Origin: Collinsella aerofaciens
GTDB taxonomy: Bacteria; Actinomycetota; Coriobacteriia; Coriobacteriales; Coriobacteriaceae
NCBI GenBank assembly: GCA_030826265.1
Contig: JAPJOH010000010.1
Span: 1,886-65,885, forward strand
Length of the DNA: 64,000 bases
Reading direction: 5' to 3'
This document shows positions 13,964 to 59,784 of the stretch, piece after piece (within the stretch, counting starts at the first letter, position 1; the number at the start of each line of letters is the position of its first letter). The notes under the pieces were generated by a model that made no database searches, was not told the DNA's origin, and saw only the letters and a program-made list of their open reading frames with translations. The position numbers and the translations under genes are program-made.

Positions 13964-14884
13964 CTACAGGCGCTTGAGAATCACATAGCGGTTGAGCTCG
14001 CCGCTGCGACCGTCGGCATGGAAGCGCTCAAGCTCGCGCACGGGAACCTCGCCGCTCTTGTAGAACGTACGGACGCCGCGCACCAGGTCGGTGATCTGCT
14101 GATCGTCAAAGTGATGGCAATAGCGGTAGGCGTGGCGGTCGTTTTGCCAGCCAATGAGGTGGTCGCCGGCTTCAAACTGGGCGGAATCGTAACCCTCAAA
14201 CGGCGGGGTGAGCTCGGCGCGGGCTTCGGCGCGAACGGCTTTGCGCGCCATGCGCTCGTCATTCATAAACTCCCAAAAGCTGATGGCGATGATGCCGCCC
14301 GGGCGCGTTTGCCGCACCAGGGCGTCGAGCACGCGTACGCGGTACTCGCACGACGGCACGTGGTGCATAAAGCCAAAGCAGACCGAGATATCGGCGAGCG
14401 GGGCGTCGAAAAGCACGTCGGGTGTTTCGGCGGGGTTGAGCTTCATGAGGGCGTCGAGCACGTCGAGTTCCTGGAAGTGCAGGTTGGGAATGCGCAGCGC
14501 GTGGCCATGTGCATCGATGGCCAGGTCTTGACACGAGTCGACGCCATAGAACTCAAACGGGCAGCTGGCATCTGCCGAGGGGTTTGCGCCGTCGACGCCC
14601 TTGGCGGCAAGTGCGCCGCCGGCGGCAAAGTTTTCGAATCGCATATTGCCGCAGGCGAGATCGAAGACGCGGACGGGATGCTCGATCGTGGCGACGTCGA
14701 GCTGTTCGAGCGCGATGTCCATGGTGCGCACCCAGCCGGGCCACGGGGCCTGGCGCGTATCGGAAAAGGAGGCGGAGTGCTCGCGATAGAACGTGTTGTT
14801 GAGCTGGATGAGCGATGAGGCGAAATCGCGGTTCACGGCGCGGAACTCCCTCCGTTGGCGGTGCGGAATAAACAGTATGACCAT
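13964..14884 (-). CDS. Class I SAM-dependent methyltransferase
   Basis: VFDLACGNMRF (motif I) and RPGGIIAISFW (post-II). The start is uncertain (14884 chosen; the ORF is open to 14971). Confidence 0.65.
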   Translation of the reverse strand: MVILFIPHRQRREFRAVNRDFASSLIQLNNTFYREHSASFSDTRQAPWPGWVRTMDIALEQLDVATIEHPVRVFDLACGNMRFENFAAGGALAAKGVDGANPSADASCPFEFYGVDSCQDLAIDAHGHALRIPNLHFQELDVLDALMKLNPAETPDVLFDAPLADISVCFGFMHHVPSCEYRVRVLDALVRQTRPGGIIAISFWEFMNDERMARKAVRAEARAELTPPFEGYDSAQFEAGDHLIGWQNDRHAYRYCHHFDDQQITDLVRGVRTFYKSGEVPVRELERFHADGRSGELNRYVILKRL

Positions 14885-15103
14885 ACTACCGTTAACGTCG
14901 CAACGGGGACAACCGAGCTGCGGCTCATTGCTTTGTTTGGACACATTTCCGCAGCTCATATGTGCCCGCAACCGCCAGTTGTCAAAAATCTCACTAGAAT
15001 AGGTGGCATGCTTTTGGCGGTGGCGGATAGATTTTTAACTGTGCAAGGCGCCTTAAGAACAAAAACGGTCCGGCGGCACGGCTGGCATCACATAGGAGGA
15101 ACC

Positions 15104-15826
15104 ATGAATGTAGAAACTGCGCAGCGGCTCGCCGACCTTCGCCGCAGCAAGGGCTTTAGCCAAGAAGGGCTGGCGCGAAAGCTGGGGCTGTCGCGCCAGG
15201 CGGTTAGTAAATGGGAGCGTGCGGAGAGCTCGCCCGATACCGAGAACCTGATCTCGCTCGCCAAGCTCTATGGTGTGAGTCTGGACGAGCTGCTCAATCC
15301 GAGCGATGAGATTGAGGACGATATCGAGTTTGAGAACGAGGACCGCGCTCGTCAGCGCGAGGCCGAGGCGGCAGAGCGCGCCCGCACCCATGAGGCGGCG
15401 GCGCGCGCCACCGAGGCGGCAACGCAGGCAAGTGACGCGGCAGCCAAGGCGGCGCAGGCGGCAAGCTGGAGTGCGCAGGCTGCCAATGCGGCGACGGCTC
15501 AGGTGACGGGTACCGGTGCGGCTGGTCCGACTCCGGTGAAGGGTCCGTTCCAGTCATTCCCGTATTGGGCCGTGTGCTGGCTGCTGTTCTTTTTACTGAT
15601 GTTCCTGTTTGGTGCCGGCCCCTTTGCTGCGCTGATCTTCTTCACGATTCCCATCTATCACTGGGTGGCGCGTGCACTCGATGGCGATTGGGCGCGCGGG
15701 GATATTCAGGTTGGTCCGGCACCGGTGGCGGTCAGGGCCCAGGGGAAGGATACTTCTGCGGAACCTGATGCTGACGTGGCTACCGCGGCCACCGCTGAGC
15801 CATGTGCCAAAGAAGGTGACGAATGA
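15104..15826 (+). CDS. XRE-family HTH regulator with Ala-rich linker and C-terminal transmembrane segments
   Basis: FSQEGLARKLGLSRQAVSKWERAESSPD HTH; AGGAGG RBS at MNVETAQ; hydrophobic WAVCWLLFFLLMFLFGAGPFAALIFFTIPI. Confidence 0.85.
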   Translation: MNVETAQRLADLRRSKGFSQEGLARKLGLSRQAVSKWERAESSPDTENLISLAKLYGVSLDELLNPSDEIEDDIEFENEDRARQREAEAAERARTHEAAARATEAATQASDAAAKAAQAASWSAQAANAATAQVTGTGAAGPTPVKGPFQSFPYWAVCWLLFFLLMFLFGAGPFAALIFFTIPIYHWVARALDGDWARGDIQVGPAPVAVRAQGKDTSAEPDADVATAATAEPCAKEGDE

Positions 15827-16725
15827 TGAAGCTTTCGCATGAATCCAAGCTGCGCCTGGGCGTCGGCATCGGAGCGTTTGTACTGATTATCGGGCTTGTT
15901 TTTGGCGTTTCGCGGACTTTGATTCATTTTGATGGCCCGTGGGATCTCGACGATGTTATACCCGGCTTGTCCGGTATGGACGATGTGGTTGATGACGACG
16001 ATTTTATGAACGATGGCGGTAACTATTCCGCTCGGCCTCAGCAGCTTTCGTGTACGACCTTTGATGCCGATGAGTTTCGCTACCTCGATTTCGATATCGA
16101 TGCGGCTACGGTGGACGTCAAGGTTATTGATGGTAACAAGGCTCGCGTTATCGAGCGGGGACGCGTTGCCAATGGTATGGATGCCTCCAAGGCCGCGACG
16201 CAGAACATCGCATCCGTCGAGGACTCGACGCTCAAGGTTTCCCAGTTTGGAAGTGATGACGGTAAGGCAATCGATCGCTCAGTTACGGTCGAGCTGCCGC
16301 GCCGTGTTGCCGAACATCTGAAGGGAGTCAACGCGCACGTGGGCTCGGGTGATCTGCAGATTGCCGGTGTCACCTGTGATGGTTTCGACCTTTTCCTGGG
16401 TGCGGGAGATGTAGAGTTTGCGGGCAGCGTGACTGATGCGCTCAGTGCTGAGGTCGGTTCGGGCGATGTGACGTTCGAGCTCTACCAGGCCCCCGTGAAG
16501 TCGATGGACGTGAGTGTGGGCTCGGGCGATGTGGAGATGATGGTTCCGAACTCGACGGGCTTTAAGGCGAGCCTTACCCTGGGCAGCGGCGACTTCGAGA
16601 GCGATTTCCTTCCGCTTGGCTACGACGGCGAGACCATTTTGAATCTTGAATTCGATAACGGCGATAAGTCTGCTACGTATCGTTTTGAGGTCGGTTCGGG
16701 CGACATGTCATTTGATTCAGAGTGA
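15823..16725 (+). CDS. DUF4097-like beta-strand repeat protein (N-terminal TM)
   Basis: Repeated GSGD(V/L/F) strands. ATGA start/stop overlap with the XRE gene. Confidence 0.7.
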   Translation: MMKLSHESKLRLGVGIGAFVLIIGLVFGVSRTLIHFDGPWDLDDVIPGLSGMDDVVDDDDFMNDGGNYSARPQQLSCTTFDADEFRYLDFDIDAATVDVKVIDGNKARVIERGRVANGMDASKAATQNIASVEDSTLKVSQFGSDDGKAIDRSVTVELPRRVAEHLKGVNAHVGSGDLQIAGVTCDGFDLFLGAGDVEFAGSVTDALSAEVGSGDVTFELYQAPVKSMDVSVGSGDVEMMVPNSTGFKASLTLGSGDFESDFLPLGYDGETILNLEFDNGDKSATYRFEVGSGDMSFDSE

Positions 16726-19610: not shown

Positions 19611-19636
19611 GTCTCCCCGTCTCAAAAAGACTGGTC

Positions 19637-22096
19637 TTAGGCGTGGTCGCGCCAGCCGAGAACGCGCTGCTTCATGCCCTCGATGTCGAGCACGCCTTCG
19701 GCGAAGCCCTTGCGCACGAGCTCTTCGGGAACAAACTCGTCGTAGCGATCAAAATAAGGCACCTCGCCGGGATAGACGAGCTCGATGGGATCGAAGTCCT
19801 TTTCGGCCTCGGCTGCGAGTACCTCAAAGAACGTCTCCTCGTCGGCCTTCATCTTAAACTGCATAAAGTACGGGCGTGACGGGTCGAGTCCGCGAAGGCC
19901 CAGCTCCGCGGCGCATTTAATCTTGAGCATGCGCTCGAGCGCCAAAAAGGCGTAGCTGCCCAGCCAGGGGAAGAGCACCCAGGTGTCGCCGCCCAGGTTA
20001 ATGAGCGGCTTGGCCCCCGCGCCCGAAATCTCGGCCGTATGGCGAGCCTGCGCCAAGCGGGCCCGTGCGTTACCCATAAGGTACGGATATGCCGCGTGCT
20101 CGTTAAGCGCCTTGCGCATGCGCTCGAGCACATGCGTATTGATGTCACCGGGGCAGTCGCCAAAGTAGGCCGGCACACGGCCCTTGACCTGCGTGGCAAA
20201 GACGGTGTGGCGCTTCCAGTCCACTTCCTCGACAATCCAGCAGTGTCCGGCGATGGCGATGCGCTCACCGGGCGGAGGGGGATTGACGATCGTGCCCAAC
20301 TCGGCCGACTCGCTGCGAACGGTGAACTCCTCGTTTTCCTGGAACACGGCGTAGAACTTAAAGTTGTTAATGATGCGCTCTCCCGCGAGACCCACGATGA
20401 GTCCGCCGCCCTCGGTGACCTGGATATGGTCGATCTTAATGAGGTGACGAAGCAATACGCGATAGTCATCGGCCGAGATGCGATGGAAATAGCTGAGCGT
20501 GAGCACGCGCTGGGCAAGTTCGGCCGGCGTGAGCTCGCCGGTGCTGGCAAGCGTCGACATAGTCTGGTGATAGAGCAGGCTGTAGGGGAGTCGATCGAGC
20601 TCGGGCGGCTCGACCCACTTTTCCTCGCGATAGAGTTGTACGAGCGCGATACCCTGCAGGAGCTTCCATGGAATGGTTTCGGGCATCATCGTGCGCGGTT
20701 CGGGCTCTTCCTCGCGCATGACAAACCACATCTCGGGCGGAAGGTCGCGGCGTCCCGTGCGGCCCATTCGCTGCAAAAAGGAGCTGACGGTAAACGGCGC
20801 ATCGATCTGGAACGCGCGCTCCAGGCGGCCGATATCGATACCGAGCTCCAGCGTAGAGGTGGTGACGGTTGTCTGCGCCTGCTCCTCGTCGCGCATGAGC
20901 TCCTCGGCCGTCTCGCGCAGCGATGCCGAAAGGTTGCCGTGATGGATTAGAAAGCGGTCGGGCTCGTGTCGACTTTCGCAGTAGCTGCGCAGCATGGAAC
21001 ACACGGCCTCTGCCTCCTCACGCGAGTTGGCAAAGACCAGGCACTTGCGGCCGCGCGTATGCTCAAAGATATAGCCCATACCGGGGTCGGCGTTGTCGGG
21101 CGCCGTGTCGGTGGGGTTGAGAAGCGCCTGCTCGGTCGCTCGTGGGATGTCGACTTCGCCCTCGGGGGCCGAGGAAGTGCGACGGTCTTTGGGAGCGGCC
21201 TTGCCCCGTGCCCGCTCACGACGTTGACGGCGTTCCTCCTGTGTAAGCTGTCCGCTGTGGCGCACGTCTTGGGCGCCAGCCGGCAGCGCCGCGGGCGCCG
21301 CCGGCTCAATACGCTCGCAAGCAAGCATCTCGGCTTCTTGTGGACCCGTGCTCTCGAATCCCCGCTGCTGTGCCTGGGGACCCGAGTTGTAGAAGTGCTC
21401 CATGGAGATGCGCCACACGCGGCGCGGTTCCTCAAAGCGGGGGATGATGCAATCGCGTCCTGTTCCCTGTGAGAGAAAGGCGCCCGTGCGCTCGGGGTCG
21501 CCGATGGTGGCAGAAAGGCCGATGCGGCGGGGCTGCACGCCCGCCATGCGCGAGAGGCGCTCGATAAGGCAGAGCGTCTGACCGCCGCGGTCGCCGCGCA
21601 TGAGCGAATGAACCTCGTCGATAACCACATAGCGCAGATCGCAGAACATACGAGGGATTGCCATGTGCTTATGGATCAGGAGCGCCTCGAGCGACTCGGG
21701 CGTAATCTGCAAGATACCGCTCGGTTTTTTGATGAGCTTAGCCTTGTGCGACTGCGAAACATCGCCATGCCAGTGCCAGACGGGGATATCGGCCTCTTCG
21801 CACAGGTCGTTGAGGCGGACGAACTGATCATTGATGAGCGCTTTGAGGGGGCCGATGTAGAGGGCGCCCACGCTCGCGGGCGGGTTCTCCCAAAACTCGG
21901 TCAGGATGGGAAAGAAGGCTGCCTCGGTTTTGCCGGAAGCCGTGGATGCCGTTAGGAGCACATTGTCTTGTGTGTTAAAGATGGCATCTGCCGCCGCAAC
22001 CTGAATGGAGCGCAGGCTCTCCCAATCGTGGGAGTAGATGAAGTCTTGGATAAACGGAGCATATCGGTCAAAGGCGTTCACGGGGCCTCCTTTCAA
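19637..22096 (-). CDS. sngC: Lhr-like SF2 DEAD/DEAH helicase (Shango SngC-like candidate)
   Basis: ASTASGKTEAAF (motif I), VVIDEVHSL (DEVH) and QRMGRTGRR (motif VI). A low-complexity insert sits between the RecA lobes. The true start may be GTG 22081, preceded by AAGGAGG. Confidence 0.8.
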   Translation of the reverse strand: MKGGPVNAFDRYAPFIQDFIYSHDWESLRSIQVAAADAIFNTQDNVLLTASTASGKTEAAFFPILTEFWENPPASVGALYIGPLKALINDQFVRLNDLCEEADIPVWHWHGDVSQSHKAKLIKKPSGILQITPESLEALLIHKHMAIPRMFCDLRYVVIDEVHSLMRGDRGGQTLCLIERLSRMAGVQPRRIGLSATIGDPERTGAFLSQGTGRDCIIPRFEEPRRVWRISMEHFYNSGPQAQQRGFESTGPQEAEMLACERIEPAAPAALPAGAQDVRHSGQLTQEERRQRRERARGKAAPKDRRTSSAPEGEVDIPRATEQALLNPTDTAPDNADPGMGYIFEHTRGRKCLVFANSREEAEAVCSMLRSYCESRHEPDRFLIHHGNLSASLRETAEELMRDEEQAQTTVTTSTLELGIDIGRLERAFQIDAPFTVSSFLQRMGRTGRRDLPPEMWFVMREEEPEPRTMMPETIPWKLLQGIALVQLYREEKWVEPPELDRLPYSLLYHQTMSTLASTGELTPAELAQRVLTLSYFHRISADDYRVLLRHLIKIDHIQVTEGGGLIVGLAGERIINNFKFYAVFQENEEFTVRSESAELGTIVNPPPPGERIAIAGHCWIVEEVDWKRHTVFATQVKGRVPAYFGDCPGDINTHVLERMRKALNEHAAYPYLMGNARARLAQARHTAEISGAGAKPLINLGGDTWVLFPWLGSYAFLALERMLKIKCAAELGLRGLDPSRPYFMQFKMKADEETFFEVLAAEAEKDFDPIELVYPGEVPYFDRYDEFVPEELVRKGFAEGVLDIEGMKQRVLGWRDHA

Positions 22097-22198
22097 AAGC
22101 TAATCTCTCAACGCGGTGGGCGGTGGTTTGCTGCATTGCTGCTTCAACGTTTGCCCAGATAAAACCTGCCAAAATAAACCTGTCCCTTTTTTGGCAGG

Positions 22199-23503
22199 TT
22201 AGATGGTGAATTCGGCGAAATTACGGTCGCCGCCTGCGGTGTCGGTGTCGCCTGTTGCGGCTGCCGGCGCCAGCGCGTCGCCGCCGACGCTTTGCAGCAA
22301 CTCGGCCACATTTGCATCGGGGTTCTGACACAGGATATCGAGCAGCTCGATAAAGTCACGAATGACCTCACGGGGCGTCAGGTGCGTATCGGCTCCCACG
22401 CGGCCAAACTCAATCTTGAGGAAGTCCACCAAGTCGTTCTCGGTAAGCGTGGGCGTCCAGCCAAAGTAGCCGGCATGGATCTGCATGAGTTTTTCGATCA
22501 GCACCAGCAACTCCTCGTAGGTGAGTGGCTGCAGGCGGATGATGGGCGCGAGCATGTCCTTAAGATCCTCGCGTGCAAAGCGGCCTTGAGCGAGTCGGCT
22601 GCGCAGGGCCTCGTAGGAGAACACGCCACGGCGGCGGTCTTCGATGGAGGTTGGCGTGCCGCCCATGATCATGCCCAGGTACTGCGCCTTGCCCTGGAGC
22701 GTGTCGTTGTACATGGTCAGGATCTTCTCGTAGTTGTATTGGCGTGTGATGGCGTTGGGAATCTTATACAGATTCACGAGCTCGTCGATGAGCACCAGCA
22801 TGCCCTTGTAGCCGCTGCAGACCAAAAAGCGCGCAATGAGCTTAACGTAGTCGTACCAGTCGTCATCGCTGATGATGGTCGAGGAGCCCAGCTCGGCGCG
22901 AGCCTCGCTCTTGGTGCGGTATTCGCCGCGGATCCATTTGGTCACGCGGCTCATAGCTTCTTCGTCGTCCTCGGATACGGCCGCGCGGTAGCGGCGGAGC
23001 ATGCGGGTGAAGTCGAAGCCGTGGACCATTTCCTCGAGCGGGGCCAGTTGGGCATTGACGGCCGACTCGTCGACGTCGGCACACGAGGCGACCCAGCGAT
23101 CCAGAATAAGGTTGAGCGCACCGCCCTCAGGGCGCGTCTTGGTCGATATGTTGCGGATGAGCTCACGGTAGGTGGCAAGGCCCTGTCCCTGGCCGCCCTG
23201 CAGACGGCGCTCAGGGGATAGGTCGGCATCGGCCACGACGAATCCCTCGCCCATGGCGTGCGTGCGGATCGTCTGGAGCAAAAAGCTCTTGCCGGCGCCG
23301 TAGCGACCGACTAGGAAACGGAAGCTTGCGCCGCCATCGGCGATGAGGCTCAGGTCGGTGAGCAGAGCGCGAATCTCGACCTCTCGCCCCACGGTGATAT
23401 AGGGAAGGCCGATGCGCGGGACAACGCCGCCCTTGAGCGAGTTGAGAATGACGGCGGCGACGCGCTTGGGCACGCGGGGTGCTGCGGATGCGGTATCACT
23501 CAT
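22199..23503 (-). CDS. sngB: DUF2791 / BrxD-like P-loop ATPase (Shango SngB-like candidate)
   Basis: GRYGAGKS Walker A and MLVLIDELV Walker B. N-terminal LNSLKGGVVPRIGL...ITVGRE is typical of the BREX-type ATP-binding domain. The start overlaps the upstream stop by 8 nt (ATGAGTGA). Confidence 0.8.
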   Translation of the reverse strand: MSDTASAAPRVPKRVAAVILNSLKGGVVPRIGLPYITVGREVEIRALLTDLSLIADGGASFRFLVGRYGAGKSFLLQTIRTHAMGEGFVVADADLSPERRLQGGQGQGLATYRELIRNISTKTRPEGGALNLILDRWVASCADVDESAVNAQLAPLEEMVHGFDFTRMLRRYRAAVSEDDEEAMSRVTKWIRGEYRTKSEARAELGSSTIISDDDWYDYVKLIARFLVCSGYKGMLVLIDELVNLYKIPNAITRQYNYEKILTMYNDTLQGKAQYLGMIMGGTPTSIEDRRRGVFSYEALRSRLAQGRFAREDLKDMLAPIIRLQPLTYEELLVLIEKLMQIHAGYFGWTPTLTENDLVDFLKIEFGRVGADTHLTPREVIRDFIELLDILCQNPDANVAELLQSVGGDALAPAAATGDTDTAGGDRNFAEFTI

Positions 23504-25241
23504 GGTCTAAGTATCCTCTCACGTCTGCTTCGTAGTCCTCGATAATGCGCGGTCCTGCCGCGCCAAATTCAATTACGGTGTCACCCACCAGGTCAAAGAG
23601 CGCTTCGTTGATGCTGTCGACGAGCATGTCTTCACTCTTGCCCGACTTTGCCACCGCCGATGCCGTCTGCGCTGCGTTTTGCTCGAGTAGTGCTCGAAGA
23701 TAGGCGTTTGCTGCAGGATTGAGTGCGGACGCAGTGTCGGCGGGCGTGGGCGCTGGTGCGAGGAGCGGGGCTACGACGCCAAACTGCTCGGTGGAGATGG
23801 TCGGCTCGCTAGCCTCGTCCTGCTGCATGGTCGTCGCGACTGGCTCGGCGATCGTGTCGGCCACGGGCTCGGCTTCCCGTCGCTCGGCAACTGCCGCCTC
23901 GGCATCCGCAAGCGTGCCGTCCTCGCGCTCTTCGTCGATTAAAAGTGCTTCGCGCGTTTGCGCAGCGGCGCTCCGAATGTGCCCCAGCTGAGTCAGGTCG
24001 ATATCGATCTTGACGGGCTGGTGTGCGGCGTCCCACGAAAGCCATGCCACAATCTCGTCATCGATAATCTTGGCCAGATATTTGGGGACCTTTTCTTCCT
24101 TAAGGGGATGGGCGGGGTCCAGCGCCAGGCGCAGGCGTTGGTCGCAGGCGCGCATCATTTCACCGAGCTTGCTGCTCTTTTGCCTACTACCATGGATACG
24201 CATACATTCCCAAAAGCCGTTTTGGCAACGGTAGATATGGATGGGATCCAGGCGGTATTCGCAGTTCTCGTGGCGCTCGGGCGCAAAGAATACGGCCGAG
24301 GCAAACATGGTGTAGGGCATGGCCGTCTCCTCCCCAAACAAGCTCGCTACGATGCCGGTCTTTCGATGCGTGTCGTAGTAGCGCGCCATGCGGACATACG
24401 CGGCGCATGCCACGTGGCGCAGATCGCGGTGGTGGCTGCGGTCGAGCCGCGAGTTACTTAGGTTGTACGTGGAGAGGGCGTTGATGGCGGCCATGAGTCG
24501 CTCCTCGCGCACCTCATCGGGCGGAAGGGGGAGCGTGGGCTCGGAGGTTTTGCGACGTTTGGGGGTCTGGTCGGACGGTGCCGGTGCCGGTACAAGGTCT
24601 CGTGCCGCGCGCCGCAGCTCGATAAGGGCGTTATCGAACATGACGGTTTTAGAGTCGCGGAGCAGCTTGGGGTCGAGCCCATGGAATACGGCGTAATCCT
24701 GCAACCACACGCGTGCAAACCGATCAATGCCGGGCTCGAAGGCGCGATAGACATCCCAAAAGGCCTTGATCTTGTTAAAACCGTCGAGCGGGTCATCTAC
24801 GCCAATGCCGCAAATCAGCTCATAGAGATACAGAAAGGCAAAGGACGTAGACGTTTCCTCGACGGTTCCGCGGCGCACTTGGGCACGCCAGGTAAAGTAG
24901 CCGCGCAGCTGCCGGTCGCTCATGGCGTTGTAGGTGGGAAAGTACGACTTAAAGGTGCCGTTGTAGGGACAGTCGTCCTCAAAGTCGGCCATCAGCAGGC
25001 CCTGGCGGTAAAAAAGCTCGGCTTCCGAAAGCCAGCGGCCCGCACCGCCCTTGGGGTCATCCTGCCAGCGCGATATCTCGCGCATTTTGCGGTACTGGTC
25101 GGGGAGGAAATTCTGCATCTGTCGACCGGTTTTGAGAATCGGCTCGTCTGCGTAGATTTCGTTTGAGAAACGGGCGGACTGATGGGTCCGGGCCTCGGCC
25201 ATAATGCGCTCGATGAGCATTTTGATGTCCTGGTCGGCCAC
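23496..25241 (-). CDS. sngA: TerB-N / TerB-C domain protein (Shango SngA-like candidate)
   Basis: TerB_N-like YNAMSDRQLRGYFTWRAQVRRG...FAFLYLYELI. TerB_C-like C-terminus (DIDLTQLGHIRSAAAQTREALL ... DSINEALFDLVGDTVIEF...IIEDYEADV). GTG start with a GGAGAGGAG RBS. Confidence 0.8.
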   Translation of the reverse strand: MADQDIKMLIERIMAEARTHQSARFSNEIYADEPILKTGRQMQNFLPDQYRKMREISRWQDDPKGGAGRWLSEAELFYRQGLLMADFEDDCPYNGTFKSYFPTYNAMSDRQLRGYFTWRAQVRRGTVEETSTSFAFLYLYELICGIGVDDPLDGFNKIKAFWDVYRAFEPGIDRFARVWLQDYAVFHGLDPKLLRDSKTVMFDNALIELRRAARDLVPAPAPSDQTPKRRKTSEPTLPLPPDEVREERLMAAINALSTYNLSNSRLDRSHHRDLRHVACAAYVRMARYYDTHRKTGIVASLFGEETAMPYTMFASAVFFAPERHENCEYRLDPIHIYRCQNGFWECMRIHGSRQKSSKLGEMMRACDQRLRLALDPAHPLKEEKVPKYLAKIIDDEIVAWLSWDAAHQPVKIDIDLTQLGHIRSAAAQTREALLIDEEREDGTLADAEAAVAERREAEPVADTIAEPVATTMQQDEASEPTISTEQFGVVAPLLAPAPTPADTASALNPAANAYLRALLEQNAAQTASAVAKSGKSEDMLVDSINEALFDLVGDTVIEFGAAGPRIIEDYEADVRGYLDHE

Positions 25242-25278
25242 CGCTTCTCCTCTCCTAACGCAGCTTCGGTGACCTCAT

Positions 25279-25308
25279 ATCATAGCACAGCATCAAACAG
25301 GTGTTCGA
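25279..25308 (-). promoter_or_regulatory. Candidate promoter of the TerB/ATPase/helicase operon
   Basis: Minus strand: TCGAAC-N18-TATGAT, with the last three spacer bases TGC forming an extended -10 (TGn), about 35 nt upstream of the GTG start. Confidence 0.3.
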
Positions 25309-25329
25309 GATACTGCTGCGTAGATAGAT

Positions 25330-26164: not shown

Positions 26165-27595
26165 TCAGGTGGTTGTCGGGACATAGGGATAGTATTCAAA
26201 GCGCAGTGTCATAAGCCGCTGTGGGGATTCAATAGCCGCGGCGATGATATTGGCATCGCGGGCACGATCAAACCCTTCGAGTTCGATCTGATACGAGACG
26301 TCTTGCATAATGTCCAGACGTCGCCAGGCCAGGAGTGTGTCGCCATCGAATTCCAAGGTCTTGCCTCCGTCTGGAGCAACGGCGTATAGACGCAGCTTGG
26401 CGGTGGTTGCAGGGTCGACAACTGTGACCTTTTTAATTTCGTTTCGAGTATTCTTGGCGCCCAACAAGGTGAGCAGTGTTGGGGCCACGACCTCGCCCGA
26501 TGGCAAAAAGACGACTTCGATGGATTCAGGAAATGCGATGATAGCCGACTTGCGGACGGGCTGATTGGCGGCGGCAACTTCGATGTTCGCAGCGTCGATG
26601 ACCTCTGTGTGGTCGAGCGCGGCAAGCACGCAGCAGTTACCTTCATCGATCTCTTGAGGATCAGCAAGCCCCAGACTGTCCGCGAGCTCGGGATCGTTTG
26701 GATCGGCAGCGGGCTCATTCGGCGCTTCGAGAGAAGCTGGGACGCTGTTTGTCGGCGACGGCGTGTCGCCCGCACCTGCTTCTTTGTCCGCGCTCTCTTC
26801 TTGTATGGTTGCGTTGATGGGTTCGTCGTTTGGGGGGAGCGTCTTGGCGTCAAACGCGGAGGGGAGAATTCCGATGGCTCCGGATCCGTTCCACTCCATT
26901 TCGAGAAGCGCCGGGTCGGCAAGAATGCGTTGCCTGCTTTGCGCGTGGGCATCGATTTCAATAGGGCCTGCCTCTATCCCTCGTGTAAGGCTGAGTGATC
27001 CGGCTGGCTTCTCGAAATGAGCGTCTGTGTCTTTGGTGCTGACGGCGTAGAACAGCAGGGACGCTTCTCCCGCCGCGATAACATCGGTACCGGCTTTGGT
27101 CAGCCGCAACGATGCCGTGAATGAGAGGGTGGGCTGCGCATCGTCTGCATTCGCGGCGGCGCAGCCCAGACATATACCGCCTCCTTTCTCAAAAAACGTA
27201 CCGTCGAAGGCGACCTTCGCTCCGTTCGCCGAGTCATCGACCGAAGCGATGTCGATGCGCAGCTCTAAATTGCATGGATCGCCATCCGCATCGAGCACAA
27301 CCGAGCGCCACGTGCAGACGGCGCACCCCGCCTGGGAGCCGTTTGCCTTGTTCGAACGCTTGATATCCACGACTATCGAGCCGTCCGTATTACGACGAAG
27401 GCATCCCGAGGTTGAGATCACGGCCTGTGCGATCGAAAAACGCTCGCACGCAATGGCGCTCGACGGATTTGGTGCGGAACTTAGGGCTACTGGTAAGGAG
27501 TCTGCCATGACGGGAGTCGCCCAAGCGGCGACAGGCGTTCCGGTTGCGAGCGCGCCGCAGAGTGCGACGACGGGCAAAAGGTTCTTCGATGCCAT
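26165..27595 (-). CDS. Secreted Cys-containing protein of unknown function (476 aa)
   Basis: Signal peptide MASKNLLPVVALCGALATGTPVAAWATPVMA. AAGGAG RBS. Acidic P/E/D-rich central linker. No recognisable domain. Confidence 0.7.
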   Translation of the reverse strand: MASKNLLPVVALCGALATGTPVAAWATPVMADSLPVALSSAPNPSSAIACERFSIAQAVISTSGCLRRNTDGSIVVDIKRSNKANGSQAGCAVCTWRSVVLDADGDPCNLELRIDIASVDDSANGAKVAFDGTFFEKGGGICLGCAAANADDAQPTLSFTASLRLTKAGTDVIAAGEASLLFYAVSTKDTDAHFEKPAGSLSLTRGIEAGPIEIDAHAQSRQRILADPALLEMEWNGSGAIGILPSAFDAKTLPPNDEPINATIQEESADKEAGAGDTPSPTNSVPASLEAPNEPAADPNDPELADSLGLADPQEIDEGNCCVLAALDHTEVIDAANIEVAAANQPVRKSAIIAFPESIEVVFLPSGEVVAPTLLTLLGAKNTRNEIKKVTVVDPATTAKLRLYAVAPDGGKTLEFDGDTLLAWRRLDIMQDVSYQIELEGFDRARDANIIAAAIESPQRLMTLRFEYYPYVPTTT

Positions 27596-27608
27596 GGGGT
27601 CTCCTTAG

Positions 27609-27926
27609 CTAATTTAGTGCGGCCTGTCCGTGTTTTTGTTTCTGGCTGCGTTTGATGTGCAGACCGAGGCCGGCGGTTCCCGCGCCTGCTGCTGTGGCGC
27701 CTGCTGCCAAGAGCCATCGTCTGTCGCCTGTCTGCGCCAACGGTTCCTCGCGGTCGCCGCGGTCGAGCTCCGAGAGGTCGACCGTCACTTGCGTGGCGGC
27801 CTGCGCCTGTTCTTGCTGGGCAAAGGCCATGGCTGGCCCAAACGCTAGGATGCTGACGGCGGCGGCCAGGGCGACGGCCTTATGCCGTGTGCGCACCGGG
27901 CTCGACCGTCCAGGTGATCGTCGCAA
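27609..27926 (-). CDS. Small secreted protein with LAQTG cell-wall sorting signal
   Basis: Signal peptide (...AFGPAMAFA|QQ) and a ~35-aa mature part. Then LAQTG plus a hydrophobic stretch plus a KRSQKQKH tail. The start is uncertain (TTG 27926 or GTG 27897) and overlaps the upstream gene. Confidence 0.6.
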   Translation of the reverse strand: MRRSPGRSSPVRTRHKAVALAAAVSILAFGPAMAFAQQEQAQAATQVTVDLSELDRGDREEPLAQTGDRRWLLAAGATAAGAGTAGLGLHIKRSQKQKHGQAALN

Positions 27927-28479
27927 CCTGATCGCCTTCGCCGGTTACGCGGAAGATGTCGCGCGTGACGCGGGCGACGTTTCCGCTTGTCTTGAGCTTG
28001 ATTTTGTCCGTGCCGCCGGCAATGCCCTGGTAGCCCATGTCGAAGGCTGCATTCTTGGAAAGATCGAGGCCCGTCCCTTGCGCGGCGGCGCTGGCGTTCT
28101 GGAGCGCGCCGTCGGGGCCGACCTTAAAGTCGATGGAGTTCTGCGCGGTTCCGGCCTTGGCGTCGGCGGCAATGGTCCAGGTGTTCATGGCGTCGATCTT
28201 CATGTTGGTGACATGGATGCCGTAGGCCGAATGATTGTCGATGGTGGTCGCGTCTTCTGAGGGGCCCTGAAGCGTGCCGTCGGCCTTGGCGACGAAGGGA
28301 ATAACCGTCGGAACTTTGAACTCAACGTTGTCGATCTCGGTTCTGACCATTACCTTCGTGGTTCCAACGCGCCCGGCTGCCATAGCTGGCGTCGGGGCGG
28401 CGCCCATTGCGAGCGCGAGCGCGAGCCCTGTGCCCACGACGAGCGCTCTGACTCCGTTCATGTTCCTGGTGATGTCCAT
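27880..28479 (-). CDS. Secreted 199-aa protein, WxL-like
   Basis: Signal peptide ...ALAMGAAPTPAMA|AG. Two W-x-[IV] motifs (NTWTIAAD; the C-terminal ATITWTVEPG resembles the TWxLxxxP end of WxL domains). AAAGGAA RBS. Confidence 0.6.
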   Translation of the reverse strand: MDITRNMNGVRALVVGTGLALALAMGAAPTPAMAAGRVGTTKVMVRTEIDNVEFKVPTVIPFVAKADGTLQGPSEDATTIDNHSAYGIHVTNMKIDAMNTWTIAADAKAGTAQNSIDFKVGPDGALQNASAAAQGTGLDLSKNAAFDMGYQGIAGGTDKIKLKTSGNVARVTRDIFRVTGEGDQVATITWTVEPGAHTA

Positions 28480-28569
28480 GGTCGTTCCTTTCTATTCGCC
28501 GCGGGCCGTCCCCGCGATGATTGGACGAATGCTGGTGAATTGCGTGCGGTGCCGCGTCGGCCGGAAAAG

Positions 28570-29079
28570 CTAGTTCTCGGCTTGCTCAACCCGCACCTTG
28601 ACACGTGTCGGATTGCCGTGGCTGTCGAGGGTCTTGGCATCGAGTGCCTGGATCTCGATGTACGCCTCGCCTTCTTTGATGTCGCCGGCGGGGCACGTTT
28701 CGATTGTCTTGCCGGTCTCGACCACACCGGATTCGTACATGGTCTCGTCGTTTTGGATGACGCGGAATCGCTGGGGAAATTTATTGTCTTGGACGTTTTG
28801 CACGTTGACGCGCAGCTTGCCGTCCTCCTGCAGCTGAGCGACCGGTGCGACCGAAATCGTCATCATGTTGTCGCGGACGATGGCGTCGAGCTCATCTTGG
28901 ATTTCCTGACGCGTTTTGCCCTCGGCCGTCGTAACCGAAGCGCCCGCCTCGGGTACGGGCTGCGACTGCCAAGCGTATAGTCCTACGGCGACAAGGGCAC
29001 AGACGATGGCCAAACAGGCAAGGATGAGCTTCTTGCGACGACCCAGGCCTGCAAAGTGGGGTGGCTTCTTCGCGCTCAT
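28570..29079 (-). CDS. N-terminally membrane-anchored protein (169 aa), unknown function
   Basis: MSAKKPPHFAGLGRRKK plus the TM helix LILACLAIVCALVAVGLYAW, then a soluble beta-rich domain. The start overlaps the stop of the 98-aa gene (ATGA). Confidence 0.6.
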   Translation of the reverse strand: MSAKKPPHFAGLGRRKKLILACLAIVCALVAVGLYAWQSQPVPEAGASVTTAEGKTRQEIQDELDAIVRDNMMTISVAPVAQLQEDGKLRVNVQNVQDNKFPQRFRVIQNDETMYESGVVETGKTIETCPAGDIKEGEAYIEIQALDAKTLDSHGNPTRVKVRVEQAEN

Positions 29080-29372
29080 GCGGCATCCTTGGCGGTATAG
29101 ATGCGCGCAAAGGTGGACGGGTTCGCTCCAAAGAGCATGTGAAGCATCAGGCGGCGTGAGTAGACAAGCTCGTCGAAGTCGGGAGGGAGCTCGATGTCGT
29201 GGATATGCGCGATGCGGTGGGCGAGCGCCGAGAACGACTCGGGGTCGCAGATCACATCGGTGGTAACGTGGTAGACCGTCGTATCGGGGAATGCCTCTTC
29301 GTCGAAAGGCAGGAGATGGGGATCGTCGTCGACTTCGATGGCGATGCCGTACTGGGGCCAGTAATATGCCAT
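29076..29372 (-). CDS. 98-aa hypothetical protein (possible degenerate DUF559-like fragment)
   Basis: GGGAGG RBS 6 nt upstream. YWPQYGIAIEVDDDP...VYHVTTDVICDPESF loosely resembles the core strands of the DUF559 domain seen at 1674-2807. Confidence 0.5.
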   Translation of the reverse strand: MAYYWPQYGIAIEVDDDPHLLPFDEEAFPDTTVYHVTTDVICDPESFSALAHRIAHIHDIELPPDFDELVYSRRLMLHMLFGANPSTFARIYTAKDAA

Positions 29373-29718
29373 GGGAACCTCCCTGCTTCTGGGGCCAAAA
29401 CTTCTGTCGGTTTTGGCTGTCGATGCCGACGGTATCAGCCACTACTTGACCAATTGCTGACCAAATGCTTGACGGATTGGTGTCTCCGCAGGTAAAAGGC
29501 GGCAAAAAATACTCCAACTTTTTTCAAGCGACAATCGCGCGGTCGGCGACGGCGGGGCCATATGTGTCAAAAGCATCGTCTGCCGAGGAAATCAAGCCGC
29601 TCGCCGAATTGCACGAACGTAAAAATCGCCAATTATGGAGACGGTCTCGAACACGTCGACGAAACGATGCGGTAACATCTCCCTGCAAACACTGTAGTTA
29701 GCTAAAGGGGGAGTTCGC

Positions 29719-56220: not shown

Positions 56221-56496
56221 ATACTCTTGTGACTCCCTTTGCTCGTGAATCCGTTTTGAATGGATATGCTAGACGCTCGCATGCGTCCGTGCGTCAGAAA
56301 CGCTCGAATATTTCGAGGCTATTACCGGCATCGTTTACCGAAACCGCGGCGTGCTGCGGCGATTTGCGTCCGCGCTGCACGGTATAATAAATCCGTTCAA
56401 CAGATCTGCCTGCCGAAGCGGGCATACACAGAGGACTCATCGCTATGAACCGTGAGAGGTATCGCGGCGACCTGCCCCTATCGGGGGTGGGCGCCT

Positions 56497-59400
56497 ATGT
56501 CATCGCTTAAGACGACGCATCGCTGGGCGGTCGCTCAGCAAAACCCCGAGCTCGAAAAGGAGCTTTCGGCTGGCCTGGGCATACCCGGGCTGGTGGCGCG
56601 CATTATGGTTGCGCACGGCATTACATCCATCGAGGAAGGCCAGCTGTTTTTGACGCCTTCGCTCGATCGCGACTGGGCCGACCCACTCATTATCCCGGGC
56701 ATGTCGGTCGTTGCCGACCGCGTCGAGCGTGCTATTCGCAACCACGAGCACATTGCAGTCTTTGGCGATTTTGACGTTGACGGTATTACGTCGACCTGCC
56801 TGTTGACCGAGGCGCTGCGCACATTTGGCGCCGATGTCACGCCGTTTATTCCGCATCGCTTTGATGAGGGCTACGGTCTTTCGCGCGCGGCACTCGACCG
56901 CGTTAACGAGCTCGCTCGCCCCCAGCTGATCGTGACCGTCGATAACGGCATTGCCGCCAAGGAAGAGGTTTCCTATCTGGAGAGCCTGGGGATCGATTTG
57001 GTGGTCACGGACCATCACGAGCCCTCCGACCAGGTGCCGCAGGGTGTGCCCCTGACCGACCCCAAGCTCGAAGACGAGGGCCCCTCGCGTGAGCTTGCCG
57101 GTGCTGGTGTGGCGCTCAAGCTGGTGCAAGTCCTGGGTGAGCGCCTGGGCAAGCCGTCGTATTGGCGTTTGCTAATCGAGGTCGCGGCGCTGGGCACCGT
57201 GTCCGACATGATGCCGCTCACGCCCGAGAACCGCGCGCTGGTTGCCGAGGGCATCCAGCAGATGCGCGTAACCTCTCGCCCCGGCTATATCGCGCTTGCC
57301 GCGCTCGCCAAGGCGGACCTTTCGAGCATTACGGCGGATGGCCTGTCATTCTCGCTCATTCCCCGCTTAAACGCTGCCGGTCGCATGGCCGATCCCAAGC
57401 TCGCGCTCGACCTGCTGCTTGCCCGCAATCCCATCGAAGCAAGCGCGCTGGCGGCTGAGCTCGAGGAAATCAACCGCCAGCGCCGTGAGATCGAGGCGGA
57501 GCTCACGCGCGATGCCATGGCAAAGGTCGAGGAGACCTATGACGGCGGACGCGCGATCGTCGTGGGCGGCGAAGGCTGGCACGAGGGCGTCAAGGGCATC
57601 GTGGCAAGCCGTCTGACCAACCGCTACCACGTGCCGGCACTGCTGTTCTCGATCGAGGATGGTATCGCGCGCGGCTCTGGTCGCTCGGTGGGCAAAGTTA
57701 ACCTGTTTGACGCTATCGAGCGCTGTTCCGACCTGATGATTCGTCGCGGCGGACATGCCGGCGCGGTGGGTGTGACCATCGAGGCGTCCAAGCTCGATGA
57801 GTTCCGCCGTCGCCTTTCCGCCGTGTTGTCCGAGCTTCCCGCCGAGGACTTTGAGGACACCGACGAGGTTGCCGCCACGGTCGACCTTTCCGAGCTGAAT
57901 ATCGAGACTATAGAGCAGATTTCCCGCCTTGAGCCGTTTGGCCAGGGTAATAAGGTGCCGCTGCTGGCCGCCGAGGGCGTGACGATGTGTGATCGCGCCG
58001 TGGTGGGTAAGACCGGCGAGCATATGCGCTTCGTGGCGACGGATGGCGCCGCGAGTGTGCCGGCCATCATGTTTCGTGTACCGCAGATCGACAGGCTTAT
58101 CAATTGCGACAGCGCCGTCGACTTGGTGTTCGAGGCCGTTGCCGAGCATTGGCAGGGTCGTGTGAAGCCCAAGCTCATGGTCAAGGATGTTCTGGTCCGC
58201 GATAGCACGCTGCCCAGCGTCGACGATCCGGCATGCGAGCTTCGTCGTGGCGTGCAGCCGGCGGATTCCGGCCTGCGCTTGGAGTCGCGCAAGCGCGAGA
58301 CGCTCGCCCAGCTTTCCTATACCGAGCTCACGCGCTCGCTTATCCATAGCTTTATCGGATCGAACCAGCCGCACCGCGCGCAGGTTGAGGCGCTCGACGC
58401 CTTGGCCGATCACCAGAGTGTCTTGGCGGTTATGGGAACGGGCCGCGGCAAGTCGCTCATCTTCCATGTGCATGCCGCGCGTGAGGCGGTGCTTCGCGGA
58501 CGTGCGAGCATCTTTGTCTATCCGCTGCGTGCGCTTGTTGCCGACCAGGCCTATCACCTCTCGTCGACGATGGCATCGCTTGGCATTGGCGTTGGCGTGC
58601 TTACCGGCGAGACCGTGGAGGCCGCGCGCGATGACGTGTTCGCCGGCCTAGCTTCGGGCCGCACCGGTATCGTGCTCACGACGCCCGAGTTCCTATCTAT
58701 CCACCGTGACCGCTTCGCGCGTTCGGGCCGCATCGGCTTTGTCGTTATCGATGAGGCGCATCATGCCGGTCTTGCCAAGGGCGGCGACCGCAGCGCCTAT
58801 CTCGACATGCCCGATATCCTCAAAGCCCTGGGCGACCCGGTCGTTATGGCTGCGACGGCCACCGCGACGGCTCCGGTTGTGGCCGAGCTTGCCCGCATGT
58901 TGCCGATCACTCGCACGGTGGTCGACGAGACGGTGCGCGAGAACCTGCGGCTCGAGGACGACCGCGATCTTGCAAGTCGCGAGAACCGTTTGGTGTCGAT
59001 TGTGGCGACGGGGGAAAAGACCGTCATCTACGTCAATTCGCGCGACCAGTCCGTGGCGCTCGCCAAGACGTTGCGCAAGCGTGTGCCCGATTGCGCAACC
59101 CATATCGCGTTCTATAACGCGGGGCTTGTGCGTTCCGATCGCCGTCGCGTGGAGGAAGCATTCCGAGACGGCAGCCTCAGCTGCATCGTCTCGACCTCTG
59201 CCTTTGGCGAGGGCGTCAACCTGCCCGATATCCGCCATGTCGTGCTCTATCACATGCCGTTTGGCGGCATTGAGTTTAACCAGATGAGCGGCCGTGCCGG
59301 TCGCGATGGCCAGCCCGCCGTGATCCACCTGCTCTATTCGTCGCGCGATGCCCGCATTAACGAGCGCCTGCTCGACTGCTACGCACCCGAGCGCGACGAG

Positions 59401-59784
59401 CTCGTCACACTCTATCGCGCGCTGCAGACCATGTGGCGCTCCAACCGCGGCAAGACCGGGGATGATTCATTCTGCGCAAGCGATATCGACATCGCGCAGA
59501 TGTGCCTTGCCATCGATGCCCGCACGCCGGTCGACGAGCGCTCGGTGGAAAGCGGCCTAGGAATCTTCGAAGAGCTTGGTTTCTGTCGCGTTTCGGGGTT
59601 TGACGACACCCGTCGCATCGCGATGGCCGAAAACCCCGGCCGCGTGCAATTGAGCAGGTCAATTCGCTATTTGGAGGGCTTGCGCTCGCGCATGGAGTTT
59701 TCGGCTTTCCGGAGCTGGGCGCTCGATTCGTGCGCTTCTGATATGCTAGCCAAAGTTAACCGCCCGATCGTACCGCGGGCCTAG
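56497..59784 (+). CDS. recJ: RecJ (DHH/DHHA1 ssDNA exonuclease) fused to a RecQ-like SF2 helicase
   Basis: N-terminal half: FGDFDVDGITS, VTVDNG, VVTDHH and GGHAGAVG. C-terminal half: MGTGRGKS, VVIDEAHH, MAATATAT and QMSGRAGRDGQPA. One continuous 1095-codon frame. Confidence 0.88.
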   Translation: MSSLKTTHRWAVAQQNPELEKELSAGLGIPGLVARIMVAHGITSIEEGQLFLTPSLDRDWADPLIIPGMSVVADRVERAIRNHEHIAVFGDFDVDGITSTCLLTEALRTFGADVTPFIPHRFDEGYGLSRAALDRVNELARPQLIVTVDNGIAAKEEVSYLESLGIDLVVTDHHEPSDQVPQGVPLTDPKLEDEGPSRELAGAGVALKLVQVLGERLGKPSYWRLLIEVAALGTVSDMMPLTPENRALVAEGIQQMRVTSRPGYIALAALAKADLSSITADGLSFSLIPRLNAAGRMADPKLALDLLLARNPIEASALAAELEEINRQRREIEAELTRDAMAKVEETYDGGRAIVVGGEGWHEGVKGIVASRLTNRYHVPALLFSIEDGIARGSGRSVGKVNLFDAIERCSDLMIRRGGHAGAVGVTIEASKLDEFRRRLSAVLSELPAEDFEDTDEVAATVDLSELNIETIEQISRLEPFGQGNKVPLLAAEGVTMCDRAVVGKTGEHMRFVATDGAASVPAIMFRVPQIDRLINCDSAVDLVFEAVAEHWQGRVKPKLMVKDVLVRDSTLPSVDDPACELRRGVQPADSGLRLESRKRETLAQLSYTELTRSLIHSFIGSNQPHRAQVEALDALADHQSVLAVMGTGRGKSLIFHVHAAREAVLRGRASIFVYPLRALVADQAYHLSSTMASLGIGVGVLTGETVEAARDDVFAGLASGRTGIVLTTPEFLSIHRDRFARSGRIGFVVIDEAHHAGLAKGGDRSAYLDMPDILKALGDPVVMAATATATAPVVAELARMLPITRTVVDETVRENLRLEDDRDLASRENRLVSIVATGEKTVIYVNSRDQSVALAKTLRKRVPDCATHIAFYNAGLVRSDRRRVEEAFRDGSLSCIVSTSAFGEGVNLPDIRHVVLYHMPFGGIEFNQMSGRAGRDGQPAVIHLLYSSRDARINERLLDCYAPERDELVTLYRALQTMWRSNRGKTGDDSFCASDIDIAQMCLAIDARTPVDERSVESGLGIFEELGFCRVSGFDDTRRIAMAENPGRVQLSRSIRYLEGLRSRMEFSAFRSWALDSCASDMLAKVNRPIVPRA

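Follow-up and report, generated by a model that had tools for sequence, protein, structure and literature searches.

A predicted Shango system at a vertically inherited core locus of Collinsella

The contig JAPJOH010000010.1 of Collinsella aerofaciens (assembly GCA_030826265.1) was analysed over a stretch of 64,000 nucleotides, referred to below as the window. On its minus strand, three adjacent and co-directional genes, sngA, sngB and sngC, almost certainly form a complete and intact Shango system, that is, a system of a TerB-like protein, an ATPase and a helicase (PMC10250203). Membership of this family is assigned because the top match of each protein is the corresponding Shango model of PADLOC, aligned over nearly its full length, and because the expected Pfam domains are present. 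SngA matches its PADLOC model with an E-value of 3.3e-77 (profile positions 53-525 of 528) and contains TerB_N (5.6e-32) and TerB_C (1.4e-16). SngB matches its model at 2.1e-169 and fills profile positions 1-412 of 414 of Pfam BrxC_BrxD (5.2e-149), while SngC matches at 7.5e-276 (positions 4-715 of 720) and carries the DEAD (1.7e-26) and Helicase_C (6.6e-18) domains. The catalytic motifs are all intact. In SngB these are Walker A, GRYGAGKS at residue 66 (K72), and Walker B, LVLIDE at residue 236 (D240/E241). In SngC, helicase motifs I, II, III and VI are present, with TASGKT as motif I (G50/K51/T52 invariant in the SngC alignment), DEVH at 155, SAT at 190 and QRMGRTGR at 437. A sequence-only reading of the window had proposed a Shango-type triad in a high-GC Gram-positive, made up of a TerB_N/TerB_C-like gene, a DUF2791/BrxD-type gene and an Lhr/BrxHI-like DEVH helicase gene. 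This identification holds: the three open reading frames (ORFs), the 8-nt overlap of the first two (ATGAGTGA) and every quoted peptide signature are found, among them LRGYFTWR at residue 112 and INEALFD at residue 544 of SngA, and BrxHI is the second match of the helicase. A standard DefenseFinder or PADLOC run would call the system, and both its identification and its core status are already on record; what is added here is the locus-level detail. As a discovery the locus adds little, and its interest rests on an unusually deep vertical conservation.

Conservation was followed in a species-level sample with one genome per GTDB species, in which the flanking Elp3-like radical-SAM protein served as query and the C. 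aerofaciens type strain was included; the resulting 80 loci are the closest of at least 592 relatives. Full-length sngA, sngB and sngC occupy the same position in 66 of the 80 Collinsella loci. In the remaining 14 the locus runs into a contig end, with the beginning of the operon still visible in 9, and there is no empty site among the 80. In all 66-72 Collinsella copies the ORFs run without interruption and contain the motifs. Relative to the proteins of the window, median identity is 98.0% for SngC, 98.2% for SngB and 90.8% for SngA, compared with 97.0% for Elp3 and 76% for a DUF4097 protein. Nei-Gojobori estimates of the ratio of nonsynonymous to synonymous divergence (dN/dS) are 0.031 for sngC, 0.031 for sngB, 0.143 for sngA and 0.053 for Elp3. 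The genes sngB and sngC are under strong purifying selection, and the ATPase and helicase they encode are intact. Synonymous divergence (dS) is the same for the sng genes (0.26-0.29) as for Elp3 (0.27), and therefore the operon has diverged along with its flanks. A protein identical to SngB was found in 605 blocks of the assembly collection, and the neighbours are the same in the ten that were listed (ENA metagenomes; human gut where named).

The homologue searches were dominated by near-identical Collinsella sequences and yielded few more distant Coriobacteriaceae relatives; presence of Shango in more distant Collinsella species was sampled through six further contexts. In a more distant Collinsella (locus L103) the identities are 67% for SngA, 88% for SngB and 88% for SngC, with 83% for Elp3 and 78% for the FAD oxidase. 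A still more distant lineage (L093/L094) has 52%, 82% and 83% for the three Shango proteins and 79%, 74% and 72% for flanking genes. In an Enorma-like contig with an SngA that groups with proteins of Enorma massiliensis, SngA, SngB and SngC are 52%, 68% and 77% identical, Elp3 64%, the FAD oxidase 65% and the DUF554 protein 61%. The order of FAD oxidase and electron-transfer flavoprotein (ETF), sngABC and Elp3 is kept in all of these. Across the distant loci SngB (68-88%) and SngC (77-88%) are at least as conserved as Elp3, the FAD oxidase and ETF (49-83%). In C. tanakaei-like genomes (L098/L099, 10001-20045), identified by an SngA that clusters with a C. tanakaei protein, the operon is broken up and every part is retained. 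Here sngAB adjoins rplJ/rplL-rpoB, and sngC lies 4.5 kb off, past three unrelated genes (Fe-hydrogenase, a 353-aa protein and an ABC transporter), and has kept the same spermidine-synthase-like gene after it. Because synteny is shared across the Collinsella and Enorma-like lineages, residence of Shango is taken to predate the Collinsella/Enorma split. By these comparisons it is a vertically inherited, fixed core locus among housekeeping genes.

Some local variation was seen around the sng genes in these relatives. In another lineage, L096 (10001-17149), sngAB is followed directly by purL, and there is no sngC within that contig. At about 1.9-4.9 kb in L098-L100, a gene for a 442-470-aa protein with an SLFN_AlbA_2 (Schlafen/AlbA-like) domain is located between rpoB and rplL, near sngAB. 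The Enorma-like contig (L102, 18191-19068) has a small gene and a PIN_3-domain gene, resembling a toxin-antitoxin pair, between sngC and Elp3.

The core position bears on the sequence-only reading, which had described the surroundings as island-like and had listed universal presence as core genome of the clade among the outcomes that would refute it. Such presence is what the counts given above show, and the island-like description is not supported. The flanks are Elp3 (TIGR01211, above the cut-off), a spermidine-synthase-like protein, a TrmB-type methyltransferase, an ETF/FAD-oxidase operon and a DUF554 membrane protein. The GC content at third codon positions (GC3) of the sng genes is 0.72-0.79, and both GC and GC3 equal those of the housekeeping neighbours. 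No tRNA gene is present in the window, no integrase or transposase occurs among the precomputed Pfam matches of called genes within 10 kb, and PADLOC returned only generic helix-turn-helix (HTH) or helicase domain matches for the flanking proteins and the largest ORFs of the window. A defence island or mobile cargo was considered and is ruled out by the lack of any empty site, the housekeeping flanks, the native GC3 and the synteny to the Enorma-like contig. Core status leaves the Shango homology intact but removes the argument from an accessory island.

Outside this lineage the family is found in mobile settings. In Actinomycetota, Bacillota and Pseudomonadota alike, the three genes stay together. 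Relatives of SngB occur on 687 plasmids, mostly conjugative plasmids of Klebsiella and Salmonella (about 42% identity), and on a Clostridium estertheticum plasmid (60%). The two plasmid records that were inspected (C. estertheticum and E. coli) show the order TerB_N protein, ATPase, helicase, with insertion sequence (IS) elements adjacent. The phage genome collection contained no SngB homologue.

The organisation of the operon is given in Table 1. The position of the sngB start codon inside the end of sngA implies translational coupling; the overlap is 8 nt in the metagenome copies and in L093/L094, whereas it measures 4 nt in C. tanakaei-like genomes and in Clostridium. For sngC the mechanical ORF list, followed by the sequence-only reading, starts from a TTG at 22096 (19637-22096, 819 aa). 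The reading frame is confirmed, and its start is most likely the GTG at 22081, which is preferred because an AAGGAGG Shine-Dalgarno sequence precedes it and because the gene calls on every metagenome copy use it.

Table 1. Features of the predicted Shango operon and its spacers in the window
Feature	Position	Strand	Description
sngA	23496..25241	(-)	581 aa; GTG start, AGGAGAGGAG upstream; soluble TerB_N/TerB_C protein
sngB	22199..23503	(-)	434 aa; BrxC_BrxD-family (DUF2791, ORC/Cdc6-like AAA+) ATPase
sngC (most likely start)	19637..22081	(-)	814 aa; Lhr/BrxHI-like superfamily 2 (SF2) DEVH helicase
sngA/sngB overlap, ATGAGTGA	23496..23503	(-)	8 nt; sngB start codon within the end of sngA
Hairpin, terminator-like or attenuator-like	22165..22198	(-)	just past the sngB stop codon, in the 117-nt sngB-sngC spacer
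Upstream spacer, DUF554 gene to sngA	25242..25329	(-)	88 nt; Shine-Dalgarno sequence AGGAGAGGAG, presumed promoter

Downstream of the sngB stop codon a 10-bp inverted repeat, CCTGCCAAAA/TTTTGGCAGG, is followed by TTTTATCT. The complete spacer between sngB and sngC folds with -31.6 kcal/mol, the hairpin forming its 5' stem, and the hairpin-bearing first 45 nt give -11 to -14 kcal/mol in most of the 72 Collinsella copies. In these copies the hairpin is kept through sequence conservation and without compensatory changes. A consensus terminator scan did not report it, since its loop exceeds 8 nt. The hairpin may attenuate read-through into sngC, which would fit sngC working apart from sngAB, as in the C. 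tanakaei-like genomes. Scanning of the region upstream of sngA gave no sigma-70 consensus promoter; the promoter is presumably located in the spacer 5' of sngA.

SngA is the divergent member of the trio. Its AlphaFold2 model, built with 31 Coriobacteriaceae sequences as input, has a mean predicted local distance difference test (pLDDT) score of 71.9 and shows folded blocks at about residues 50-215, 243-436 and 505-581, with disordered, hypervariable linkers between them. Variation among the Collinsella copies is centred on a disordered linker rich in A, P and E (residues 441-540), and the folded domains (51-83% identity) also change more quickly than SngB and SngC when the same genomes are compared. 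The TerB domain proper (PF05099) was not matched in SngA even at E<=10. When the model was compared with the PDB by Foldseek, a weak alignment of about 70 residues to winged-helix DNA-binding domains of the LysR/ModE type recurred (E about 1, probability 0.7-0.9). The modelled helix-helix-helix-hairpin-helix of residues 509-579 would fit a winged helix, which is only a hint. At a threshold of E<=1e-30, 808 clusters (50% identity) belong to the SngA family. A search of PDB sequences gave no match for SngA or SngB, and none of the three proteins contains a hydrophobic segment compatible with a transmembrane helix.

For SngC the best PDB matches are Lhr (5v9x; 5e-25, or 2.8e-41 with a profile) and MrfA/YprA (6znp). 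The protein nevertheless falls outside the bona fide Lhr family, with 84 bits against the NCBIfam Lhr model PRK09751 (cut-off 1496) and 194 bits against the ligase-associated DEXH helicase model TIGR04121 (cut-off 850); only its RecA domains align to 5v9x and 7lhl. None of the three Shango proteins reaches an NCBIfam equivalog. Beyond the second RecA domain there is a faint WH_Lhr signal (E 0.1), which is all that Pfam offers for the C-terminal stretch of about 350 residues, and this stretch has no PDB sequence match. An insert of low complexity and about 95 residues (approximately 235-335), specific to this lineage, separates the two RecA domains of SngC. Of this region, residues 240-323 do not align to the Clostridium copy, and it is also the variable stretch among the Collinsella copies. 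SngC has been grouped with BrxHI, DruE and DpdJ in a clade of immune-associated SF2 helicases (PMC12278908).

These features can be combined into a possible mechanism, which we put forward tentatively and consider doubtful as a whole: SngB would load or activate SngC on DNA, and SngA would act as a sensor or scaffold. The role of SngB as a loader of SngC is suggested because the two are homologous to the BrxD-BrxHI pair. A 2026 analysis (PMC12839542) places BrxD among the standalone ORC-Cdc6 AAA+ ATPases, notes its tight linkage to BrxHI and proposes that it may load or activate this partner; BrxHI is described as a Ski2-like helicase with a winged HTH, a beta-barrel and an Lhr-like C-terminal domain. 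By analogy, SngB as an ORC/Cdc6-type AAA+ protein would oligomerise and spend ATP to load or activate SngC, a predicted Lhr/BrxHI-like 3'-5' DExH helicase. The target of SngC could be invading or replicating foreign DNA, for example single-stranded gaps, R-loops or replication intermediates. SngA is proposed as the sensing or targeting part because of its gene position, its coupling to sngB and its faster evolution; its TerB_N, central and small C-terminal (possibly winged-helix) domains would provide a specificity scaffold. Since none of the three proteins contains a nuclease or toxin domain, interference would proceed through the helicase action itself, by displacement of replication proteins or unwinding of intermediates, or through hand-off of the substrate to host nucleases, and not through disruption of the membrane.

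Whether or not this mechanism applies, it is probable that the Collinsella system still gives protection against phages or other mobile DNA, as its validated homologues do. When P. aeruginosa PAO1 carried the Shango system of strain PA14, it was protected from several phage families (Johnson et al. 2023, PMC10250203), and the system was also validated in E. coli (Millman et al. 2022, 10.1101/2022.05.11.491447). The linkage of TerB-N and TerB-C to such enzymes had been predicted by Anantharaman, Iyer and Aravind in 2012, as cited in PMC10250203 and 10.1101/2022.05.11.491447. Several points weigh against this reading. The experiments that demonstrate protection against phage all concern the homologues from Pseudomonas and E. 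coli, and a core, syntenic and compositionally native locus is atypical of defence and fits a housekeeping role equally well. The loader mechanism is extrapolated from the proposal for BrxD and BrxHI, and there is no recognisable effector among the three proteins. Structure prediction gives little help: the SngA model has no significant Foldseek match in the PDB (best E 0.9), and a single-sequence AlphaFold2 model of SngC reached a pLDDT of only 36.9. Published speculation favours membrane surveillance by TerB, for which no sequence support was found here. This idea is repeated in reviews of TerB defence proteins and is itself untested; a preprint of September 2025 still states that the working of TerB-containing defence proteins is unclear, and a paper on the mechanism of Shango was not found in the searchable literature.

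The most serious competitor of a defence role is that in Coriobacteriaceae SngABC is a domesticated housekeeping module, serving mainly the maintenance of the cell's own genome (for example repair of crosslinks or gaps, or resolution of R-loops or stalled forks) with any anti-phage effect secondary. We regard this as unlikely, although the core, syntenic and highly constrained state accords with it just as well. The full operon is present in 66 of the 80 Collinsella genomes with no empty site, its dS is that of Elp3 at a dN/dS near 0.03 for sngB and sngC, and its GC3 is native. Synteny extends into distant Collinsella and the Enorma-like contig, where SngB and SngC are conserved at least as well as the flanking proteins, and all parts survive in the C. 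tanakaei-like genomes despite the splitting of the operon by three genes. That SngB and SngC are constrained more strongly than the neighbouring tRNA-modification and electron-transfer genes could mean that they act primarily on an endogenous nucleic-acid structure. Defence neighbours were not found by PADLOC among the flanking proteins and largest ORFs of the window, and the nearest solved helicases, Lhr and MrfA, are DNA-repair enzymes. The HRGM2 gut-genome preprint (2025), in which DefenseFinder was run on 155,211 genomes, reports Shango as a rare core-genome exception in gut Actinobacteriota. However, restriction-modification and Cas systems are set apart where the same preprint describes the majority of defence systems as accessory, and core status alone is compatible with immunity. 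The Shango family is validated as anti-phage in two hosts, and the same trio is found on plasmids beside IS elements, which is typical of mobile defence cargo. Unlike core repair functions, the trio is not universal in bacteria, and the faster evolution of SngA, with its hypervariable linkers, fits a sensor that faces conflict. A broader proposal can be phrased for the genus-wide fixation of Shango in Coriobacteriaceae: it could be at root a machine for genome integrity and repair whose anti-phage activity is a by-product, or one of the rare innate immune modules that became permanently fixed, with SngA as the evolving specificity determinant. This is speculative, and we would give it slightly less credence still than the housekeeping alternative.

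A remnant of a type 2 BREX (Pgl) system, in which a BrxD-BrxHI pair persisted after loss of PglX, PglZ, PglW and BrxC, is effectively refuted. The pair is tightly linked in type 2 BREX, and the homology pointed out by the sequence-only reading is real, with secondary matches of SngB to BrxD (1.1e-38) and of SngC to BrxHI (1.7e-122). The relation is, however, more distant than that to Shango: 131 bits for BrxD versus 562 for SngB, and 408 bits for BrxHI versus 915 for SngC. Against the NCBIfam BrxD model SngB scores 132.7 bits, far under the cut-off of 350. PglX, PglZ, PglW and BrxC were not found by Pfam within 10 kb or by PADLOC among the flanking and largest ORFs of the window. As in Shango, the ATPase gene has a TerB_N/TerB_C gene as its translationally coupled partner, and the arrangement is stable across genera. 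Equally improbable is a Ter-type protein for tellurite or metal stress that works with accessory enzymes and has no link to nucleic-acid conflict. Tellurite-resistance cassettes are where TerB proteins were originally described (10.1101/2022.05.11.491447), and the domain names TerB_N and TerB_C recall this. SngA, however, gave no match to PF05099, the precomputed Pfam matches of called genes within 10 kb include no domain of the terZ, terA, terC, terD or terE type, and SngA is accompanied by an ORC/Cdc6-like ATPase and a DNA helicase.

With Shango as the preferred assignment, the universal, intact and constrained copy of Collinsella offers a natural system in which one deletion could separate action on phage DNA from action on the cell's own DNA, or show both. 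The contrast between the near-frozen SngB and SngC and the faster SngA points to SngA as the specificity component. A fixed Shango system would be expected to affect every phage of this clade and any attempt at genetic manipulation.

The remaining observations concern the neighbourhood of the operon and the rest of the window. The second accessory operon of the sequence-only reading corresponds to five co-directional genes on the minus strand at 26165-29517, 5' of the DUF554 gene, which encode proteins of about 98, 169, 199 and 93 residues and one of 476 residues with a signal-peptide-like N-terminus. It has no significant Pfam match (one sub-threshold DUF4148, E 0.005) and no PADLOC match. 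The 476-aa gene has a lower GC3 (0.63) and its product is 57-100% identical among Collinsella; the cluster does not occur in L093/L094, and the Enorma-like contig has a gene for a 1519-aa SpaA-type pilin in the equivalent region. It looks like a variable group of genes that may encode a secreted or surface protein, and it is not a recognisable defence module. In one metagenome copy (L001, 7443-8159) the DUF554 gene that adjoins sngA is broken into two ORFs, of 95 and 113 aa; a frameshift or an error of assembly is the probable cause.

On the other side of the operon, some Collinsella genomes (L005, L006, L009, L031 and L086) have an insertion of about 2 kb that separates sngC from the spermidine-synthase-like gene, at the site equivalent to 19611-19636. 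It encodes an MFS_1 transporter in L005, L006 and L009, and a gap of the same size is seen in L031 and L086. The best match of the spermidine-synthase-like protein of the window is a family of fused MFS/spermidine synthases. Further along, at 14855-16725 on the plus strand, a gene for an XRE-type HTH protein is followed by the DUF4097 ('toastrack') gene, with overlapping ORFs. The DUF4097 protein is far more variable than its neighbours (68-100% identity among Collinsella, dN/dS 0.26), and tblastn matched neither gene in L093 or L103, the more distant loci with shared synteny. At 56452-59784 on the plus strand, an ORF of 1110 aa appears to encode a fusion of a complete RecJ single-strand exonuclease (TIGR00644, 473.8 bits, cut-off 396.9; residues 47-580) with a RecQ-family helicase (about residues 630-995). 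Its PADLOC matches to DpdF and PsyrT involve the generic helicase domain only.

Comparison with known systems places the Collinsella locus among several relatives. With the BrxD-BrxHI pair of type 2 BREX it shares a homologous standalone ORC/Cdc6-like ATPase next to an Lhr-like helicase, but its third component is the TerB_N/TerB_C protein and the Pgl proteins and BrxC were not found within 10 kb or in the ORFs scanned with PADLOC. The repair helicases Lhr and MrfA/YprA (5v9x, 7lhl, 6znp) are the closest solved relatives of the SngC core, and the likeness is confined to the RecA domains. BnzA of Bunzi and DinB of Dionysus are linked to Shango in the literature as 'TerB-like' defence proteins. 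These are membrane-associated or paired with pore-forming effectors, whereas SngA, without a transmembrane segment or PF05099, is paired with DNA-acting enzymes. The nearest comparison is with Shango of P. aeruginosa PA14 and E. coli, which has the same three components in the same order, with the catalytic motifs intact. Collinsella differs from these hosts in phylum (Actinomycetota, Coriobacteriia), and its SngC from other Shango helicases by the lineage-specific insert. SngA is highly divergent: it is 25% identical to its Clostridium counterpart, and tblastn at 1e-8 gave no match to the copy on the E. coli plasmid. The junction of sngB and sngC varies as well, with the hairpin-bearing spacer of 117 nt in Collinsella, an 11-nt gap in Clostridium and a 4-nt overlap on the E. 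coli plasmid. Finally, the PA14 copy lies within the variable hotspot cDHS1 (PMC10250203) and the plasmid copies lie next to IS elements, whereas the Collinsella locus is fixed, syntenic and core.

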